From Escherichia phage KW1E_UTAR, in the sequence record MZ506873: DNA of 45,161 bases, one strand, 5' to 3'. The translations under genes were made by a program, and so were the position numbers. Below the pieces are notes generated by a model. That model saw nothing but the letters and a program-made list of their open reading frames with translations. It was not told the DNA's origin and did not search any database. The number at the start of each line of letters is the position of its first letter. Position 1 is the stretch's first letter. Below are positions 4,142 through 39,139 of the stretch, in pieces.

Positions 4142-4636
4142 ATGATGAAGACCGGGAAGCGCGGCATCGCGCTGATGCATGGATTCGAAGACTGCCGCCT
4201 TCGTGCCTATCCAGATCCTAAGACTGGCGGCAAGCCGTACACGATCGGGTGGGGTAACACTCAATACGCTGATGGTCGCCCGGTAGGTCCGAACGACGTT
4301 ATCAGCCAGGCGCGCGCCGACGAAGAGTTCGTCTTCGACCTGATCACGTTCGAAACCATGATCGATAAGGCCGTGAAGGTTCCACTGACACAGAACCAGT
4401 TCGACGCGCTGGTCAGTATCGTCTACAACGTCGGCCCGGGCAGTAAGTACAAGTCCGGCATCCTGCGACTTAAGAACGGGCAGCCTTCGACGCTGTTACG
4501 CCTCCTGAACGCTGGGGACTACAAAGGGGCCGCTGACCAGTTCGACGTCTGGATCAGCAAAGGTTCGGCGGTTGAAAATGGTCTTCGTCGTCGCCGGGCA
4601 GCAGAAAAGGCCCTGTTCCTGGACAAGTCAGCATGA
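4142..4636 (+). CDS. endolysin, T4-type lysozyme (glycoside hydrolase family 24)
   Basis: E...D...T catalytic pattern in HGFEDCRLRAYPDPKTGGKPYTIGWG, comparable to T4 lysozyme; alternative start at 4127. Confidence 0.85.
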   Translation: MMKTGKRGIALMHGFEDCRLRAYPDPKTGGKPYTIGWGNTQYADGRPVGPNDVISQARADEEFVFDLITFETMIDKAVKVPLTQNQFDALVSIVYNVGPGSKYKSGILRLKNGQPSTLLRLLNAGDYKGAADQFDVWISKGSAVENGLRRRRAAEKALFLDKSA

Positions 4637-6408: not shown

Positions 6409-6954
6409 TCAACTTTTGTTTAGCGCGCGTTTCCTGCGCATGTTGTCCCGGTTCTTGCGGCGGCGTTCTGCTGCCTGTTCCGGCGTCTCGTTCTTCCGGC
6501 GTTCACGTTCGCGCTGGGCTGGCGTCATCACCTGGACACGTTCACCGTTCACAGTGACACGCGGAGGGATTAGCTCACCATCGATCGCCACGGTGTTCTG
6601 TGCGACAGCATATTCGACGTAATGCTGTGCAACATCACGGATGAACTGTGGCTGTGTACCATTAAGAAAGCGAATGATGTCAGAATATCCTATCAGGTCC
6701 AGCTTTTCGACCCGATCGTTTTCACCAGCATAAAGCGACCCTGACTTCGAACCATCGATCGCACTGAAGCGTACAACGTTCGCCCCGGTAAGCGAGCGAA
6801 CCACGCCTTTGCATCGAACGATTTTACCATCGCGAATAAACAGGTCGCCGTCCTGAAGCACCACGTGCCACGAAAGCAGTACGCCGGGACGGACCAGTAA
6901 CGCCAGGTTACGCGCTGCTGACATAACTGCCGATCTGTAGTGGAATGATGACAT
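6409..6954 (-). CDS. hypothetical protein with strongly basic C-terminal tail
   Basis: C-terminus RERERRKNETPEQAAERRRKNRDNMRRKRALNKS suggests nucleic-acid binding. Confidence 0.5.
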   Translation of the reverse strand: MSSFHYRSAVMSAARNLALLVRPGVLLSWHVVLQDGDLFIRDGKIVRCKGVVRSLTGANVVRFSAIDGSKSGSLYAGENDRVEKLDLIGYSDIIRFLNGTQPQFIRDVAQHYVEYAVAQNTVAIDGELIPPRVTVNGERVQVMTPAQRERERRKNETPEQAAERRRKNRDNMRRKRALNKS

Positions 6955-7821: not shown

Positions 7822-8592
7822 TTACAGAGTCCAGCGACCAGTGTTATTGACCATCATGTCGTGTGCGCCGACTCGCTTGTTCATCTTGAACACGTATACG
7901 CGGTCAAGCGTCCCTTCCTGCCCGTAGCAGATGTTAGCCACCTGCTTCTTAACCTGCTTGCTGAAGTATGCCGCGTCAGTCGATTCGCGGATGACGTCGA
8001 CCGTTCTGGTTGAGCAGTCGATCGAGACAGCGACAGAACCTTCGAGCGACATACGGGACGCGTCTACCGGGTAAGACGGGACCACTTCAGCCTGGGCCGG
8101 GCTGACCAGTGAAGAGAAGACCAGCGCAGCACCAGCGAACGCCAGGCCGATTTTGTGCGACAGGCTGTTCCGACGGGCCAGTGTTTGAGTGATGGCCTGA
8201 TCCTGGGCGGATTTTTTAGTCATCATTCTGGCGCGGAAGTCACGACAGAAATCAGAATCATCGTCACGAAGTGAAGCGTAGCCAGCATCATTATCAATCG
8301 CGTCATTCATGCGCAGCGCTTCAGCGTGGTAAGCGTCCATCTGTTCTGACACGCGAAGGGCAGCTTCAGCACAATAAATAACAGTGCTCAGGTGGTTAAA
8401 GAAGTCACGACCAGAACGACGCTTCAGAACATTCTCAACGTTGAACAGGATGTCCGCTGGCAGTTCGTTAGACAGTTCACACAGGATTACGCGAAGGTCT
8501 GATTTACTCTCTTTCAGCTTCAGACCAGCGGCGCGCAGTTCGTAAACGCGGGTCATAATTTTCAGTGCAGAGCGGATAGCGATAGAGTTCAT
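7822..8592 (-). CDS. membrane-anchored protein (cytoplasmic N-domain, one transmembrane segment, periplasmic C-domain)
   Basis: Internal hydrophobic segment IGLAFAGAALVFSSLVSPAQA around residue 160. Confidence 0.55.
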   Translation of the reverse strand: MNSIAIRSALKIMTRVYELRAAGLKLKESKSDLRVILCELSNELPADILFNVENVLKRRSGRDFFNHLSTVIYCAEAALRVSEQMDAYHAEALRMNDAIDNDAGYASLRDDDSDFCRDFRARMMTKKSAQDQAITQTLARRNSLSHKIGLAFAGAALVFSSLVSPAQAEVVPSYPVDASRMSLEGSVAVSIDCSTRTVDVIRESTDAAYFSKQVKKQVANICYGQEGTLDRVYVFKMNKRVGAHDMMVNNTGRWTL

Positions 8593-32114: not shown

Positions 32115-32695
32115 AAACGATTCGACTATATGGACGACTGGGCGCGCTCTTTGGGCGCGTTCATCGCCTCCACATCGAAACCTGTTCCGAAGCTATCCGG
32201 GCGCTGTGCGTGACCGTTGACGGCTTCGAACAGTACCTTCGCGACAGTAAGAGCATGGGGATCAGGTTCGCGTGTTTTAAGGGGAAACGTAATGTCGGCG
32301 TGGACCAGTTAGCGCTGGGCTTGGGCGAAGAGGATTTTCGCATCGCGCCAGTTCTGGCAGGTGCGAAGAAGGGCGGCGTATTCCAGACCATTTTGGGCGC
32401 TGTCATGGTCGTGGCTGGCATCGTGGCGACGTTTATCCCCGGTGCACAGGCGGCGGCCCCTTACCTTATCGCTGGCGGGATCTCCACTATGGCTGGCGGC
32501 GTAATCCAGCTATTGACGCCACAACCGCCTGGAATGAGCCAGCGGCAGGATGCGGATAATAAGCCGTCATACGCGTTCGGGCAGCCAGTGAACACCACGG
32601 CTCAGGGGAACCCAGTCGGCATCCTCTGGGGGGAGCGTGAAATCGGCGGCGCTGTAATTGGCGCGGGCATTATTGCAAACGAAGTGAGGAACTAA
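32105..32695 (+). CDS. tail assembly protein (lambda I-like)
   Basis: Position between K-like and J-like genes; Gly/Ala-rich hydrophobic C-terminal region. Confidence 0.7.
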   Translation: MALKTIRLYGRLGALFGRVHRLHIETCSEAIRALCVTVDGFEQYLRDSKSMGIRFACFKGKRNVGVDQLALGLGEEDFRIAPVLAGAKKGGVFQTILGAVMVVAGIVATFIPGAQAAAPYLIAGGISTMAGGVIQLLTPQPPGMSQRQDADNKPSYAFGQPVNTTAQGNPVGILWGEREIGGAVIGAGIIANEVRN

Positions 32696-35600
32696 TGGAC
32701 CAGCCTGACAACATGAAGATCATCGAAAAGGCTACCGGGAAAGTAGTGCGCGGCGCGAAGGGTGGTGGCGGAAGCGTTCACACGCCAAAGGAAGACCCGG
32801 ACAGCCTGACAAGCCTGGCTGTCGTTCGTATGCTTCTGGCCCTTGGGGAAGGTGAGTTCGAATCGTTCGGCACTGATGACCTGAAGAAGCGCGTCATGCT
32901 GAACGGTACGCCGATCATGAACGCTGACGGGACCTATAACTTCAATGACGTCGTGATCGACTACCGCCCAGGAACATCTGGTCAATCCCACATTGCCGGG
33001 ATGCCAGCGGTCGAGTCTGAAACGGGTGTCGGCGTGGACCTGAAGGCCACGAACGAATGGACCCAGGCCCTGACAAACACGTCAATCGACGCTGTTCGCG
33101 TTCGAATCGGATTCCCCACCCTTCTACAGCAGAAGTCAAACGGGGACCGTGTAGGCTCGCGCATCGACTACACGATCTTTATCCGCAACCTGTCCGGCGG
33201 TGAGCTGTGGAAGAAGGACTTCAGCGCGATCGGCAAGACTACAACGCTGTATGAACGCGACCATCGAATCGACCTTCCACCATCACAGACAGGGTGGATT
33301 GTGGCTGTGCGACGTAACACGGCAGATAGCACAGACAGCAACCTGGTTAACCCGACTAAAATCCAGGCTTACACAGAGATCGTGGACCTTAAGCTGTCCT
33401 ACCCTAACACCGCGCTTTTGTACGTGGAGTTTAACGCGAAGCTTTTCCAGTCCATCCCGAAAGTGTCCATTAAGGCGAAGGGCCGCAAAATCCGCGTACC
33501 TCAGAACTATGACCCGATCACGCGGACGTATAACGGTTCGTGGGACGGCTCGTTCAAGTGGGCGTGGAGCAATAACCCGGCGTGGGTCTTCTTCGACTGC
33601 GCAACGGAACCGCGCTTCGCTCTGGGTAATAAGATTAACGCGTCCATGCTGGATAAGTGGGAACTGTACCGCATCGCGCAGCGTTGCGATCAGCTTGTCC
33701 CAGACGGTCGTGGCGGAGAGGAACCGCGCTACCTGTGCGACGTCTATATCCAGGGGCGTGAACAAGCCTGGACCGTCCTGAAGGACCTGGCGGCTATCTT
33801 CGCCGGAATGACGTTCTGGGGTGGCGGAATGCTGAACGTGCTTTCCGATCGTCCTGGCGATGTTAAGCAGGTGCTTACCCGCGCAAACGTGGTGAACGGT
33901 AAATTCCAGCGCCACGGCGGAAGCGGGCGAAACCGTCGCAGCGTGGCTAACGTGTCATGGGATGACCCGGCGAACCATTACCAGACGAACGTGGCTGTCA
34001 CGCCTATGATTGAGCTTGTGAACCGCTACGGATGGACTGAACCACTGGAACTGTCGGCGATCGGCTGTACTCGCTTGGGCGAAGCGCAGCGTCGCGGCAA
34101 GAACGCGCTTATCACCAACGTGACCGACGGGACCACGGACTTCAGCATCGGCATGGAAGGGATCGAATTTATGCCGGGCGACATCATCGGCATCGCCGAC
34201 GATACCTTCAGCGGCGGACAGTTCGGCGGACGTGTCGTTCGCGCAAATGGAGCGCGCTCTGTCATCCTCGATCGACCAGTGAACGAAGTTACGAAGGCGA
34301 ACGACTGGATCCTGTTCCGACAGGCCACAGACCCGGACGTTTCCCGCTTCCAGATCGCGTCCATTTCTGCTGACCGGAAGACCATCACCGTGACGACTGA
34401 CATCCTGAAAGGCGTAAACCCGTTCACGCCGTGGGTCGTCGACACTCAGGCGATCGCCATTACCCAGCATCGCGTGATCTCCGTTACCTGGAACGAGCAG
34501 GACAACACGTTCGACTGTGTGGTTCTGAAACATGACCCGTCAAAATATGACGCGGTTGACTTGGGCGCTCACCTGGATGACAGGCCGACCACCCTGATCC
34601 CGCCGGGATTCATGGAAGTGCCGAAGAACATCCAGATCACCAGTTACGAAATGCTCGTTCAGGGTACGCGTCAAACCGTCCTGCGAACCACTTGGGACAA
34701 GGTGAAGGGCGCGGTGGTGTACGATGCTCAGTGGCGTCGCGACAATAACGACTGGATTAACGTTCCGTCCACGTCCACAGAAGGATTCGAGGTTCAAGGG
34801 ATCTTCTCTGGCGATTACTGGGTTCGCGTTCGTGCGACAAACAGTTCTGGCGTGTCATCCCCGTGGGGGGAGGCAGTCAAGACCGGAATCACTGGTCGCG
34901 AAGGTGCTGTTCCTGTTCCGCAAGGTCTGAAGGCTACCAGTCAGAACTGGGGCATCAAATGGAACTGGCTAGCAGGTCGACAGGCTGACACGTCTGACAT
35001 CGCGTTCACCGAACTGGAACACTCAGTCAAGGGACTGTCCGGCTATGGCCCGTTCACGCTCCTGACGACCGTGGCCTTCCCTGCTGACTCGTTCGTTCAG
35101 GATGGTCTTGCCTTCGGTCAGTATATCCGCGTCCGCGCGCGTTACGTTGACCGCTTGGGGAATAAGTCAGACTGGTCGGCAGTGGTTGAGGGTAACGCTA
35201 ACGAAGACGCTGGCGACTACCTAGCTGGAATTACCGACGACCTGCTGACGTCGGAAGACGGCAAGGAGTTAATGAACCAGATTAACACCATGCCGGAAGC
35301 GGTCTATGAATCCATGCTGACCGACTATAAGACCCTTCTGGACGTGAAGGCTGGGGAAGGTAATCAGGTCGCCAGAATCCAAATCGCCTACAACGTGGCA
35401 GTGGAAGCGAACGAGGCAGTCGCGCAGCTTGAAACGCTGGTGGGTTCACGTATCGACGACGCTGAAGCGGCTATTCACACACTACAGACCGCCCAGGCAT
35501 CAATTGAGCAGTCATTCGCGCAGTATCAGCAGACGGTTAGCGCGAAATTCGGTGACGTTCAGGCGTCATTCGATGAACAGGGCAACCTGATCGACGCACA

Positions 35601-36252
35601 GGGGAATCGCATCACTCAGCAGGGCGTCAGAATTGACGATCAGGGCCGACTGATTGACGCGCAGGGTAACAGGATCGCGCAAGCTGAAGCGGCTATCAGC
35701 CAGAACCAGACGGCGATCGCGAACGCTAACCAGGCTCTTGCTACTTACAAGACTCAGGTGGCGGCCCAGTTTAACCAGCAGTCGGCAGCGATTGAGCAGA
35801 AGATGACGTCTCAGTTCACGGCGACAGGCGGTTCAGCGATCTACAGCCTGAAGGCTGGCGTGACCTATAACGGCGTTTACTATGACGCTGGTATGACGCT
35901 GTCAACCATCGCCAACGGCTCAGGAGTGAAGACCCGCGTAGCGTTCAAGGCTGACCAGTTTATCATCGCACACCCTACAACTGGCGGCCTGTTCGCGGCG
36001 TTCGCCGTGGTGGGGAACGATGTGTTCATTGATACGGCACGAATCAGGGCGGCGTCCATTTCGTTCGCACAGATCTCCGACACGCTTCAGTCGTCGAACT
36101 TTGCGTCCGGTCAGAACGGGTGGAGACTGCTGAAGAACGGCACGTTCGAAATTAACAGCGCCAGCGGTAACGGTCGCCTGTTAATCCAAAATAACCAGAT
36201 CCTTGTTTACGATGCATCTGGTCGCCTTCGTGTTCGTTTTGGTCTGTGGTAA
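32695..36252 (+). CDS. central tail fibre / host specificity protein (lambda J-like)
   Basis: 1185 aa; conserved J-like block NPAWVFFDCATEPRFALGNKI...RIAQRCDQLVPDGRGGEEPRY; position. Confidence 0.85.
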   Translation: MDQPDNMKIIEKATGKVVRGAKGGGGSVHTPKEDPDSLTSLAVVRMLLALGEGEFESFGTDDLKKRVMLNGTPIMNADGTYNFNDVVIDYRPGTSGQSHIAGMPAVESETGVGVDLKATNEWTQALTNTSIDAVRVRIGFPTLLQQKSNGDRVGSRIDYTIFIRNLSGGELWKKDFSAIGKTTTLYERDHRIDLPPSQTGWIVAVRRNTADSTDSNLVNPTKIQAYTEIVDLKLSYPNTALLYVEFNAKLFQSIPKVSIKAKGRKIRVPQNYDPITRTYNGSWDGSFKWAWSNNPAWVFFDCATEPRFALGNKINASMLDKWELYRIAQRCDQLVPDGRGGEEPRYLCDVYIQGREQAWTVLKDLAAIFAGMTFWGGGMLNVLSDRPGDVKQVLTRANVVNGKFQRHGGSGRNRRSVANVSWDDPANHYQTNVAVTPMIELVNRYGWTEPLELSAIGCTRLGEAQRRGKNALITNVTDGTTDFSIGMEGIEFMPGDIIGIADDTFSGGQFGGRVVRANGARSVILDRPVNEVTKANDWILFRQATDPDVSRFQIASISADRKTITVTTDILKGVNPFTPWVVDTQAIAITQHRVISVTWNEQDNTFDCVVLKHDPSKYDAVDLGAHLDDRPTTLIPPGFMEVPKNIQITSYEMLVQGTRQTVLRTTWDKVKGAVVYDAQWRRDNNDWINVPSTSTEGFEVQGIFSGDYWVRVRATNSSGVSSPWGEAVKTGITGREGAVPVPQGLKATSQNWGIKWNWLAGRQADTSDIAFTELEHSVKGLSGYGPFTLLTTVAFPADSFVQDGLAFGQYIRVRARYVDRLGNKSDWSAVVEGNANEDAGDYLAGITDDLLTSEDGKELMNQINTMPEAVYESMLTDYKTLLDVKAGEGNQVARIQIAYNVAVEANEAVAQLETLVGSRIDDAEAAIHTLQTAQASIEQSFAQYQQTVSAKFGDVQASFDEQGNLIDAQGNRITQQGVRIDDQGRLIDAQGNRIAQAEAAISQNQTAIANANQALATYKTQVAAQFNQQSAAIEQKMTSQFTATGGSAIYSLKAGVTYNGVYYDAGMTLSTIANGSGVKTRVAFKADQFIIAHPTTGGLFAAFAVVGNDVFIDTARIRAASISFAQISDTLQSSNFASGQNGWRLLKNGTFEINSASGNGRLLIQNNQILVYDASGRLRVRFGLW

Positions 36253-36256
36253 TATC

Positions 36257-36278
36257 AGCCCCTTCGGGGGCTTTTTTA
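36257..36278 (+). terminator. rho-independent terminator after the J-like gene
   Basis: AGCCCC-ttcg-GGGGCT hairpin followed by TTTTTT. Confidence 0.65.
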
Positions 36279-36290
36279 TTGGGGGTTATC

Positions 36291-36605
36291 ATGCCGCAAG
36301 GCTTGCAAGCTTGGGACGCGTCAGGGCGTATTGTGGTGGACCTGGGGGACTATTCGACAAGGTTCATCAGGTCACTGACTGTCAACCTACCAGCCAATCA
36401 GGTCGCCGTTAATGTGGCGGTGGCTGGCGTTACCGACACCGGACACTTCGCCGTAATCACGAAGGGAAACGAGTCGATCGTGTCTGGTCTGCTTATGACG
36501 TCGTTAACTGCCGTAACGAGGAACGGCGGGGTCTGGGTTATTGCCCTTGACGGGGCGCTGACTCTTGCCCGATCTGTAGTGGTCGACATTTACGCGTTTA
36601 CATAA
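36291..36605 (+). CDS. hypothetical protein, paralogue of the next gene (tail-associated?)
   Basis: N-terminus MPQGLQAWDASGRIVVD matches MSGFQVWNEAGALTID of the 36615 gene. Confidence 0.45.
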   Translation: MPQGLQAWDASGRIVVDLGDYSTRFIRSLTVNLPANQVAVNVAVAGVTDTGHFAVITKGNESIVSGLLMTSLTAVTRNGGVWVIALDGALTLARSVVVDIYAFT

Positions 36606-36614
36606 GGAGGGGGT

Positions 36615-37253
36615 ATGTCAGGTTTTCAGGTATGGAATGAGGCTGGCGCTCTGACCATTGATTCAGATAACAGGCACACGATCGTGACCGCTCAATCGAC
36701 GCCAGGGCTAACTGACGTCGGGGCATATGGCGGGGCCACGCCATTCGGAGACTGGAAGGAGTTAGGATATTTGACCCCGGCAGCGATGCCAGTCCAGAAC
36801 AATTTATACTGGGTCAGGCTCAACACTAACGCGTGGTGCTTCCCTGGCGCGTGGATGTTTAAGCCTGGAACATTCCAGATCATCACGACGTCAAGAACTC
36901 AAGCGCTTACTTCTGGAATTCTTGACGTTTATAATTCTGCTGGTGGCCTGATCTGGTCGGCTGTATCAGCCCAGAACATGCCACGAACAAGGCAGATTGT
37001 TTCCATCACTTCCGCCGCCGACAATGCTGTAGCAAGCGTGACGCCTGGGTTCAGTCCGTGGTTCCTTATGGGGGCCTGTCCGGGTAACTACTCATACGAC
37101 GGCGAAACGACTGGGTATTCAGGTTTAATTTTTAGATGGACGGGAACCCAGTTACAATATGCATGGGTTAGAAAGAACCAGAAGACATTCGCGGAAACGT
37201 TCGGCGGAAGAGGCGGATTAAGAATTCCACTGGCTGAATTCCCTGGGAGGTAG
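36615..37253 (+). CDS. hypothetical protein, paralogue of the previous gene (tail-associated?)
   Basis: Strong RBS AAGGAGGGGG; shared N-terminal motif with the 36291 gene. Confidence 0.55.
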   Translation: MSGFQVWNEAGALTIDSDNRHTIVTAQSTPGLTDVGAYGGATPFGDWKELGYLTPAAMPVQNNLYWVRLNTNAWCFPGAWMFKPGTFQIITTSRTQALTSGILDVYNSAGGLIWSAVSAQNMPRTRQIVSITSAADNAVASVTPGFSPWFLMGACPGNYSYDGETTGYSGLIFRWTGTQLQYAWVRKNQKTFAETFGGRGGLRIPLAEFPGR

Positions 37254-37259
37254 ATCAGC

Positions 37260-39110
37260 ATGGCACAAGGCACAATCAAAGTAACAAACGGTAGCGTCGA
37301 CGTTGTCGGGACCGGGACGGCATTCACCAGCATGAAGGCTGGCAGCTTCCTAACGTTCGTCCTGACTGGCGTGGCGTACACTGTAGCGATCGACAGCATT
37401 CAAAGCGCCACAGCGCTGAAGCTGGCGGTCAAGTTCGACGGACCGACTACCAGCGGCGTGGCGTTCAATGAATCACCTGTCGGCTCTATGGCGCTGGCGA
37501 CGATGGGCGTCACCGTTCAGGCCCAGAAAGCGCTTCGCATGATGATCGCCGACCAAACGAACTGGCGAGAAGTGTTCAGCAATAAGCAGACCATCACTGT
37601 AACCCTCCCAGACGGAACGCAGTATTCCGGCTATTCTTGGGGCTACATTAGCGACCTGCTGAAGGAAATTAACATCCCGGCGCTGGAGGGCATTCGCGAC
37701 CAGACGATCGCGGCTCGCAACCAGGCGCAGACCTACGCGACTAACGCTTCGAACTCAGCGACGTCAGCAAACACGGCGAACACTGGCGCACAGGCGGCGA
37801 AGACGGCAGCAGAGACAGCCAGGACAGGGGCACAGACGGCGCAGCAGGGAGCGGCAGCCTCAGCCACCACAGCAGGGGCAGCGGCTACCACAGCCACCAA
37901 TAAAGCCACAGAAGCCACTAACCAGGCGGCGCTGGCGAAGCAGTACGCCGACAGCGTCAACCCGGCTAACCTGCTGGCGAAGGCGAACAACCTGTCAGAC
38001 GTGCCGGACAAGGCCGCAGCAAGAACAAACTTGCAGATCAACAGATTCAACCAGGACTCAGCGACAGAAACAAGAGTGCTTTCTGGTGATGGTTCTCAGG
38101 CAGTGATTGTTTCAAATAGTGCGGCGTGGGGTGTTTATAAATTTGGATCTGGATGGATTCCGCTTGGGGTTGGTCAAGGTGGAACTGGATCTACATCGGC
38201 GGCTGGAGCGAGATCCAATCTTGGGGCCATTGGTGTTGGAGAGTATGGCTGGGGTGCTAACTCTATTCCAACGTGGGACCTTAGCGGGAACGTTGCTGCT
38301 GGGCTTTACAATACAGGGATTAACAATAGCGTATGGGGTAGCACTGGGGGATTAACACTTCATATGCCTCAGGGTGGAAATTGGGGTTTTGATATCTGCG
38401 TTCCTGCTGGTGGTCAGCCTGGGCTTGCTGTTAGAACCTATAACGGATCTGGTGCTGGTCTTAACTTTGTTAAGATGATGCACGCGCAGACCGGATCGAA
38501 TGCTGTTATCACGACAAACGCAAACTCAATTCAGGAGCCGGGATTGAGTAATGGTATTGTTCAGCACACAGCATCAAACAACATGCCAACCACTGCAACA
38601 AACAACTATAACTATTTGCAAGTTATTAGCAGGGGGCTTGGTGACAATGCGGCGTGGCAGCAATTCGCCCTGCCTTACGCAACGCAAACGGACGCTGGGA
38701 GGATGTTCTTTAGGGGGTGGAACACAAACACATTCTCACCATGGAAAGAGATATCAACAGTTCCTGTGTCCGATGAAAGACTAAAGGATGTAAAGGGTAA
38801 TCTTAATGTTGAGTGTTCACTCGATAACATAAACAGAATGGAGTTCAAGATCTTCAAGTACCTTAACGACTCCCCTGAAAGATCTGCGCGGCGTGGATTA
38901 ATCTCGCAACAGATAAGATGGATTGATCGTGAGTACGTGAAGGAAATCGGCGGTTATTATCATCTTGACGAGACTCCGCTAATGCTTGACGGTCTTGCGG
39001 CAATCAAGGCACTTCGCGCCCGCGACGTTGAAAATAAGGGGCGGATCGAAAAACTGGAAAGTGATATTGAAGAGTTAAAATTGCTGCTTGCTTCCATGGC
39101 GGCTAAATAA
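37260..39110 (+). CDS. tail fibre protein with C-terminal intramolecular chaperone (peptidase S74-like) domain
   Basis: Ala/Thr/Gln-rich repeat shaft, Gly-rich distal domain, C-terminal SDERLK...coiled-coil module starting at about 38769. Confidence 0.8.
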   Translation: MAQGTIKVTNGSVDVVGTGTAFTSMKAGSFLTFVLTGVAYTVAIDSIQSATALKLAVKFDGPTTSGVAFNESPVGSMALATMGVTVQAQKALRMMIADQTNWREVFSNKQTITVTLPDGTQYSGYSWGYISDLLKEINIPALEGIRDQTIAARNQAQTYATNASNSATSANTANTGAQAAKTAAETARTGAQTAQQGAAASATTAGAAATTATNKATEATNQAALAKQYADSVNPANLLAKANNLSDVPDKAAARTNLQINRFNQDSATETRVLSGDGSQAVIVSNSAAWGVYKFGSGWIPLGVGQGGTGSTSAAGARSNLGAIGVGEYGWGANSIPTWDLSGNVAAGLYNTGINNSVWGSTGGLTLHMPQGGNWGFDICVPAGGQPGLAVRTYNGSGAGLNFVKMMHAQTGSNAVITTNANSIQEPGLSNGIVQHTASNNMPTTATNNYNYLQVISRGLGDNAAWQQFALPYATQTDAGRMFFRGWNTNTFSPWKEISTVPVSDERLKDVKGNLNVECSLDNINRMEFKIFKYLNDSPERSARRGLISQQIRWIDREYVKEIGGYYHLDETPLMLDGLAAIKALRARDVENKGRIEKLESDIEELKLLLASMAAK

Positions 39111-39139
39111 AAAAAGGGGCCGAAAGGCCCCTATTTTTT
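39109..39139. terminator. bidirectional rho-independent terminator
   Basis: A7-AGGGGCC-gaaa-GGCCCCT-ATTTTTT between convergent tail fibre (+) and replication-block (-) transcription. Confidence 0.65.

Follow-up and report, generated by a model that had tools for sequence, protein, structure and literature searches.

In Drexlerviridae, Dhillonvirus and Queuovirinae, the genes adjoining gpJ have been described as "bona fide RBP loci" (RBP, receptor-binding protein), with alleles that match receptor specificity (BASEL study). Four sequence-unrelated RBP families, with accessory proteins, are distinguished at this gpJ-adjacent locus, for FhuA, BtuB, LptD and YncD (2026 preprint). YncD, now named PqqU, is a TonB-dependent importer of pyrroloquinoline quinone, PQQ (PMC12124388), and is the experimentally determined terminal receptor of the coliphages IsaakIselin (Bas10), JohannLBurckhardt (Bas11) and IME347 (PMC8594841, PMC6499177). 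Infection by IsaakIselin is blocked by PQQ, and AlphaFold2-multimer places its RBP-1 (QXV80560, 217 aa) and RBP-2 (QXV80561, 101 aa) as a predicted dimer on the extracellular face of PqqU, with SIP-1 (QXV80559), a putative periplasmic superinfection-exclusion protein resembling a TonB C-terminus and aimed at PqqU, on the periplasmic face (PMC12124388). PqqU has also been reported in K. pneumoniae (PMC12124388). Analogous pairs, each of a small Ig-like and a hand-like protein, have been discussed as the missing RBPs of Dhillonvirus, Stx phages and a Pseudomonas podovirus (PMC12309495). In this study, we examined two genes of Escherichia phage KW1E_UTAR (record MZ506873), whose 45,161 nucleotides, hereafter the window, are an apparently complete siphophage genome. 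Named g1 (36291..36605, + strand; 104 aa, 10.9 kDa) and g2 (36615..37253, +; 212 aa, 23.0 kDa), they directly follow the gene of a 1185-aa J-like central tail fibre or tail-tip protein (32695..36252, +; Pfam PF24801, PF13550, PF09327). A first-pass annotation had placed both open reading frames (ORFs) correctly, and had taken them for a paralogous pair with a possible role in fibre attachment or as baseplate accessories. Our findings favour another model: g1 and g2 probably form a terminal receptor-binding module carried by the tip of J. This reading draws on a J without a receptor-binding domain of its own, on orthology to RBP-1 and RBP-2, on the RBP-like fold of g2, and on a pair that travels with the J tip.

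Kinship with described receptor-binding loci

The product of g2 is 50% identical to IsaakIselin RBP-1 (bas10_0025) over residues 1-211 of 212, and 46% and 42% identical to its counterparts in IME347 and JohannLBurckhardt (tblastn); that of g1 is 43% identical to RBP-2 (bas10_0026) over 104 aa (E 1e-24). YncD-associated RBPs have been delimited by >30% identity over >99% of length (10.64898/2026.04.02.716166), and g2 falls within the large-subunit group so defined, while g1, an RBP-2 homologue directly upstream of the larger gene, occupies the place of the small subunit. The two loci further share the small-then-large gene order, a place beside the 3' end of a J-like gene without its own receptor-binding domain, the type of J-tip peptide, and a SIP-1 homologue encoded in the same genome. 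They differ in orientation, the IsaakIselin pair being convergent on J and the present one having the direction of J, with the fibre gene immediately behind it; and in the SIP-1 gene, which is adjacent in IsaakIselin but here lies ~28 kb off and forms the end of a longer ORF. The host of the present phage is taken as Klebsiella and its receptor is assigned by analogy; no Klebsiella PqqU locus was among the best 80 loci listed in a scan limited to exact peptide patterns. Judged by sequence, the pair appears to represent, in a Klebsiella phage, the PqqU/YncD-type RBP locus already described for T1-like siphophages, and as such to be ordinary for this phage group.

The J protein of the window stops 18 aa after PF09327 (aa 1032-1167) and has no PF12421 match in Pfam, whereas in lambda J the PF09327 domain (845-972) is followed by PF12421, Ig_GpJ_C, at 1001-1132. 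By this domain layout, the window J is without a lambda-type C-terminal receptor-binding domain. The lambda gpJ domain and T5 pb5 are functional analogues of the proposed module, both being distal elements of the central fibre that bind an outer-membrane protein; pb5 is, in addition, a separate polypeptide attached to a trimeric central fibre. Neither shows sequence similarity to the module, however; the lambda domain is covalently part of J, and pb5 is a single 640-aa protein of another fold. Compared directly with the Ig-like PF12421 domain, g1 matched it neither in sequence nor in fold.

No Pfam (including matches at E <= 0.1) or NCBIfam entry was recovered for g1 or g2, in agreement with the first-pass view that neither resembles Lom, Stf or Tfa; for g2 homologues PF28254 is precomputed, an accession outside the Pfam copy searched. 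The two proteins belong to PHROG families of unknown function, phrog_7961 and phrog_4524, respectively. By tblastn, g2 is found in 58 phage records and g1 in 54, with largely overlapping sets of phages; in every case in which both positions were listed or fetched, the two genes are neighbours. Sequence searches against solved structures gave none for g2 and chance-level matches only for g1. Both proteins are modelled as soluble beta-sandwiches with RBP-like matches. The all-beta model of g2 has its fold in common with the DUF6453 member 9RPT chain C, a monomeric siphophage RBP of solved structure, and the small g1 sandwich is similar to the knobs with which tailspikes and fibres bind ligands at their distal ends. 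Foldseek of g1 against the BFVD viral models retrieved many ~100-aa phage proteins as well as fibre and RBP tip domains, with no clear g2-family match. Neither g1 nor g2 has a signal peptide, lipobox or transmembrane helix, and the mean hydropathy of their first 20 residues is -0.03 and -0.44, versus 1.20 for the exclusion protein bas10_0024 of IsaakIselin. We know of no experimental structure or virion proteomics in the literature for the g1/g2 family. The cryo-electron microscopy structure of the T1 tail tip does not resolve the J C-terminus or the proteins analogous to g1 and g2 (PMC11945409).

Two further groups of loci invite comparison. The LptD-binding RBP of Oekolampad (Bas18) and Rtp44, a DUF6453 protein (PF20051; 9RPT chain C), is one polypeptide instead of two, and both its J-tip peptide and its receptor differ from those of the g1/g2 system. 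Despite the common fold, g2 gave no DUF6453 match in Pfam at E <= 0.1 and an hhalign probability of 6% (P 0.006, 35 columns); across g1 and g2 no significant sequence similarity to DUF6453 was found, hhalign P being at least 0.0015 and on a short motif only. At FhuA-type loci the pair is represented by T1 gp32/gp31 (ST32/ST31), N15 gp22/gp23 and the HK022 and HK97 homologues, which likewise encode ~100 aa and ~230 aa after J and a preceding terminator, with a similar N-terminal motif, MAYGISTWDANG, and the motif WDASGKLV inside the larger protein. These proteins nevertheless fall into other PHROG families (557, 425), and the similarity is at motif level only (8 bits, not significant).

The N-terminal hairpins and the J tip

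The N-termini of the two proteins are visibly alike, g1 beginning MPQGLQAWDASGRIVVD and g2 MSGFQVWNEAGALTID. Pairwise BLASTP aligned 14 residues only (E = 0.019), and hhalign of small g1 and g2 family profiles gave P = 0.0011 with a probability of 20%. The g1 family was widened by searching 1.84 billion representative proteins with a 13-sequence g1 profile, which found 120 clusters, nearly all of 86-108 aa, and no g2-like protein among its matches. With the resulting deep profile (118 sequences, Neff 6.7), hhalign aligned just 16-17 columns with the g2 family, at a probability of 91-94% (P 1e-6 to 9e-8). When 2,255 six-frame segments, taken from 8 loci, were searched with a hidden Markov model, no segment other than g1 orthologues scored better than the g2 N-terminus (E = 6e-4). 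The similarity appears to exceed chance over ~17 residues, corresponding to one predicted beta-hairpin: GLQAWDASGRIVVD in g1 (aa 4-17; 36300..36341, +) and GFQVWNEAGALTID in g2 (aa 3-16; 36621..36662, +). In both AlphaFold2 models the segment forms two short strands, at a confidence below that of the core. Beyond these 16-17 residues, g1 and g2 do not align, even as full families (hhalign). The motif noted in the first-pass annotation is hence real and the divergence behind it equally so; the pairwise alignment it had called for is weak, and the strong evidence comes from family profiles and from that short stretch. Paralogy itself, that is, descent of g1 and g2 from one gene, we do not retain, since the alignment covers 16-17 columns and not most of the shorter protein.

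Three long, multi-stretch matches to the g1 profile (P0230, P0263 and P0300) were set aside as low-complexity or repeat artefacts. Another protein, P0326 (402 aa), has a signal peptide and by eye resembles an M23-type peptidase; at its C-terminus are two ~95-aa repeats, which open with GAYIWDxNGNxVV and each match the g1 profile over its first half. From P0326, the hairpin-led domain may also occur outside phage tail tips and in tandem.

In both families the hairpins are the blocks of highest conservation. Across about 120 g1 clusters the N-terminal ~35 residues are extremely conserved, and the C-terminal half is hypervariable between clusters. The C-terminus of J, QILVYDASGRLRVRFGLW, resembles the g1 hairpin (VYDASGRLRV versus AWDASGRIVV), a likeness that is not statistically significant alone. 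Because of this pattern of conservation, and of their resemblance to the J C-terminal hairpin, the N-terminal hairpins are the best candidates for the elements by which g1 and g2 would dock. Their proposed docking site is the J tip peptide, ..GRLLIQNNQILVYDASGRLRVRFGLW (36175..36249, +).

The distribution of this tip is informative. In HK639, as in IsaakIselin, the pair adjoins the J-like gene at its 3' end, and the analogous T1 pair adjoins J after an annotated terminator. In the Acinetobacter myovirus CRR8 and the N4-like podovirus XC38 it follows giant tail proteins of >2,400 aa, whose N-terminal part is unrelated to J, as seen in the comparison made for CRR8. Yet these giant proteins and the J proteins of HK639 and IsaakIselin all end in ...ITVYDDNNxLRVRMGLW, and all four phages carry g1/g2 homologues besides the J-tip type of the window. 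Tip-peptide sites lie at 36196-36249 in the window (J residues ~1168-1185), and at 6500-6597 and 4500-4599 in two of the compared loci (L005 and L008). The J protein of Oekolampad is 65% identical to that of the window until ~35 aa before its end, where it changes to another tip, ...GGGRVKVGTW; the switch coincides with a DUF6453 RBP. Since the tip is shared across unrelated tail proteins and is switched together with the RBP in Oekolampad, the moving unit seems to be the tip peptide plus g1 and g2. Such co-variation is expected from a physical interface between tip and module, and a unit of this kind agrees with the description of the GpJ C-terminal tip as a specificity-associated feature (2026 preprint). 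On present sequences, the three-part cassette looks like one that crosses phage morphotypes. The J-tip type occurs in 1,056 records, a count of the tip peptide alone, irrespective of a downstream pair. A metagenomic protein of 242 aa, P0290, joins a J C-terminal region to a g1-like start (..GVMVMPQGLQCWDSAGRIAVD..); it is either a natural fusion or a frameshift or assembly error at an overlapping J/g1 junction such as that seen in HK639.

Proposed mechanism and alternative roles

We suggest that g1 and g2 would be made late, downstream of a leaky terminator, and that the two would pair into a heterodimer attached non-covalently to the tip of the J trimer, with the conserved N-terminal hairpins as the probable contacts. 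After a first contact of the lateral fibre with a surface glycan, the module would engage a TonB-dependent transporter of the outer membrane on its extracellular face, most likely the PqqU/YncD orthologue of Klebsiella, and adsorption would become irreversible; in infected cells a SIP-1-like periplasmic protein (7822-8592, -) may block the same receptor. Both products most likely belong to the tail tip of the virion and contact the J C-terminus. J and g1 are separated by 39 nt from stop codon to start, within which lies a terminator-like hairpin, AGCCCC-TTCG-GGGGCT followed by a T-run (36257..36280, +; consensus scan), with a fold z-score of only -1.3; phage T1 carries an annotated terminator at the equivalent position. 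This hairpin may reduce the dose of tip module and fibre relative to J. The ribosome-binding sites are strong, GGGGG at 36281-36285 for g1 (ATG at 36291) and AAGGAGGGGG at 36604-36613 for g2 (ATG at 36615), and the gap between the two genes is 9 nt.

How two chains might sit on a threefold tip is a matter for a more tentative idea, which we consider rather doubtful: g1 and g2 together would be a pseudo-threefold cap, built of a ~100-aa hairpin-led beta-sandwich unit present once in g1 and twice in g2. Speculatively, three docking hairpins would then serve one J chain each, the J C-terminus ILVYDASGRLRVRFG offering a similar hairpin for stacking, and the single-chain DUF6453 RBPs (311-321 aa) would be a fused, three-unit version. 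The lengths invite the thought, 212 being about 2 x 104, and 104 + 212 being close to 311-321 aa. Moreover, the g2 motif of aa 3-16 possibly recurs at aa 101-115 (GILDVYNSAGGLIWS; 36915..36959, +), a stretch that ranks with the best-conserved blocks of the g2 family, although its hhalign match to the g1 and g2 N-termini is weak (P 6e-4 to 2e-3); a WDASGKLV site also occurs inside T1 ST31. Self-comparison by hhalign for domain-level repeats found none in DUF6453 (P 0.83) and only an 11-residue motif in g2 (P 0.013). A motif profile from three sources recovered one of the three DUF6453 sites picked by eye (216-229, P 0.003) and, in T1 ST31, the internal site only. As the repeats and the DUF6453 motif sites are poorly recovered by sequence, the three-hairpin idea stays speculative. 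A co-linear fusion of g1 and g2 into DUF6453 was rejected, the g2 N-terminus aligning to the third DUF6453 site and not the second. If true, the cap would unify RBP families now described as unrelated and explain how a monomer or heterodimer caps a trimer.

Among other roles, the one that best withstands the evidence, while still unlikely, leaves receptor binding to g2 alone; g1 would then serve as adaptor, cap or assembly chaperone, either joining g2 to the J trimer or helping it to fold. The extreme conservation of the g1 N-terminus is what a structural docking element would show; LptD-type loci manage with a single DUF6453 RBP and no g1-like gene; and in AlphaFold2-multimer models of analogous pairs the spike tip is occupied by the larger protein only, with better predicted local distance difference test and predicted aligned error values (pLDDT/PAE; PMC12309495). 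Yet hypervariability such as that of the C-terminal half of g1 typically marks a specificity surface, the g1 fold resembles that of ligand-binding knobs, and in the published IsaakIselin model both proteins touch PqqU. We regard it as very unlikely that g1 and g2 attach or assemble the lateral tail fibre, the role closest to that of the first-pass annotation. The pair does lie directly upstream of the fibre gene in the window and in N15/HK639-type genomes, but in T1 and IsaakIselin that gene is ~3 kb off, beyond recombination genes, while the pair stays beside J, and no fibre gene follows it in the Acinetobacter phages. In addition, neither protein resembles Tfa-type or other fibre chaperones, and comparison with Klebsiella phage vB_KM5a1-KLB22 indicates that the distal fibre has been swapped between the two phages with g1 and g2 remaining 97-98% identical. 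The fibre is a neighbour of the module, not a conserved partner. It is scarcely credible that g1 and g2 are membrane-associated morons or superinfection-exclusion proteins, as the labels 'outer membrane protein' and 'membrane associated protein' given by PHROG and GenBank to the T1/N15 analogues (phrog_557, phrog_425) would have it, for they have soluble folds and no secretion or membrane signals, the known exclusion proteins Rtp45, bas18_0026 and bas10_0024 do have signal peptides, and the computed membrane affinity of the analogues is low (PMC12309495). An exclusion lipoprotein of the Cor, Llp or Rtp45 type was likewise rejected, g1 and g2 being without signal peptide or lipobox.

A terminal receptor-binding module is therefore a better name for g1 plus g2 than a fibre adaptor, because the pair stays at the 3' end of J, with the fibre gene kilobases away or absent, and its homologues are the published candidate PqqU/YncD RBPs (PMC12124388). 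Should this hold, the pair would predict the terminal receptor of the phage, by analogy a TonB-dependent transporter and probably PqqU. The J tip peptide plus g1 and g2 would make a cassette for host-range engineering, with the SIP-1-like gene as the matching exclusion factor. Correct assignment would also improve the annotation of the 54 and 58 records that carry g1 and g2, mostly labelled 'hypothetical' or mislabelled 'membrane protein', and of many more if analogous pairs are counted. The published accounts cited here do not state the significant N-terminal hairpin common to both subunits, the tip, g1 and g2 cassette of Acinetobacter myo- and podoviruses, or the displaced SIP-1-like gene. 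The shared hairpin and the co-transfer of tip and module in Acinetobacter phages are handles on how separate RBPs dock to a trimeric central fibre.

The exclusion gene and neighbouring features

The SIP-1-like gene is a 256-aa ORF on the opposite strand (7822..8592, -), in which homology to SIP-1 is confined to the last ~95 residues (tblastn, 38% over 99 aa, E 3.7e-11; BLASTP, 45% over 71 aa, E 5e-14). It falls into phrog_25729 (E 7e-22), the family of IsaakIselin bas10_0024. Since a Sec-type signal peptide, ..AGAALVFSSLVSPAQA/EV, lies inside the ORF, the real start is probably an internal Met before it. Signal-peptide-bearing exclusion genes are found within the RBP loci of IsaakIselin (bas10_0024, L004:6729-7061) and Oekolampad (bas18_0026, L007:21622-21843); the window's own RBP locus holds no third gene of the exclusion type.

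KLB22, with a 45.2-kb genome, is 92% identical to the window over the region examined, and its matching ORFs are annotated as hypothetical. The lateral tail fibre gene (37260..39110, +) encodes 616 aa with a C-terminal S74 intramolecular chaperone (phrog_1980, E 1.5e-83; PF13884, aa 504-554). The KLB22 fibre has 512 aa, and the nucleotide similarity of the two fibre genes ends near 37582. Behind the fibre gene, at 39115-39132, a perfect hairpin resembling a bidirectional terminator (AGGGGCC-GAAA-GGCCCCT, with a T-run on each strand) separates the rightward structural operon from the leftward recombination and replication genes.
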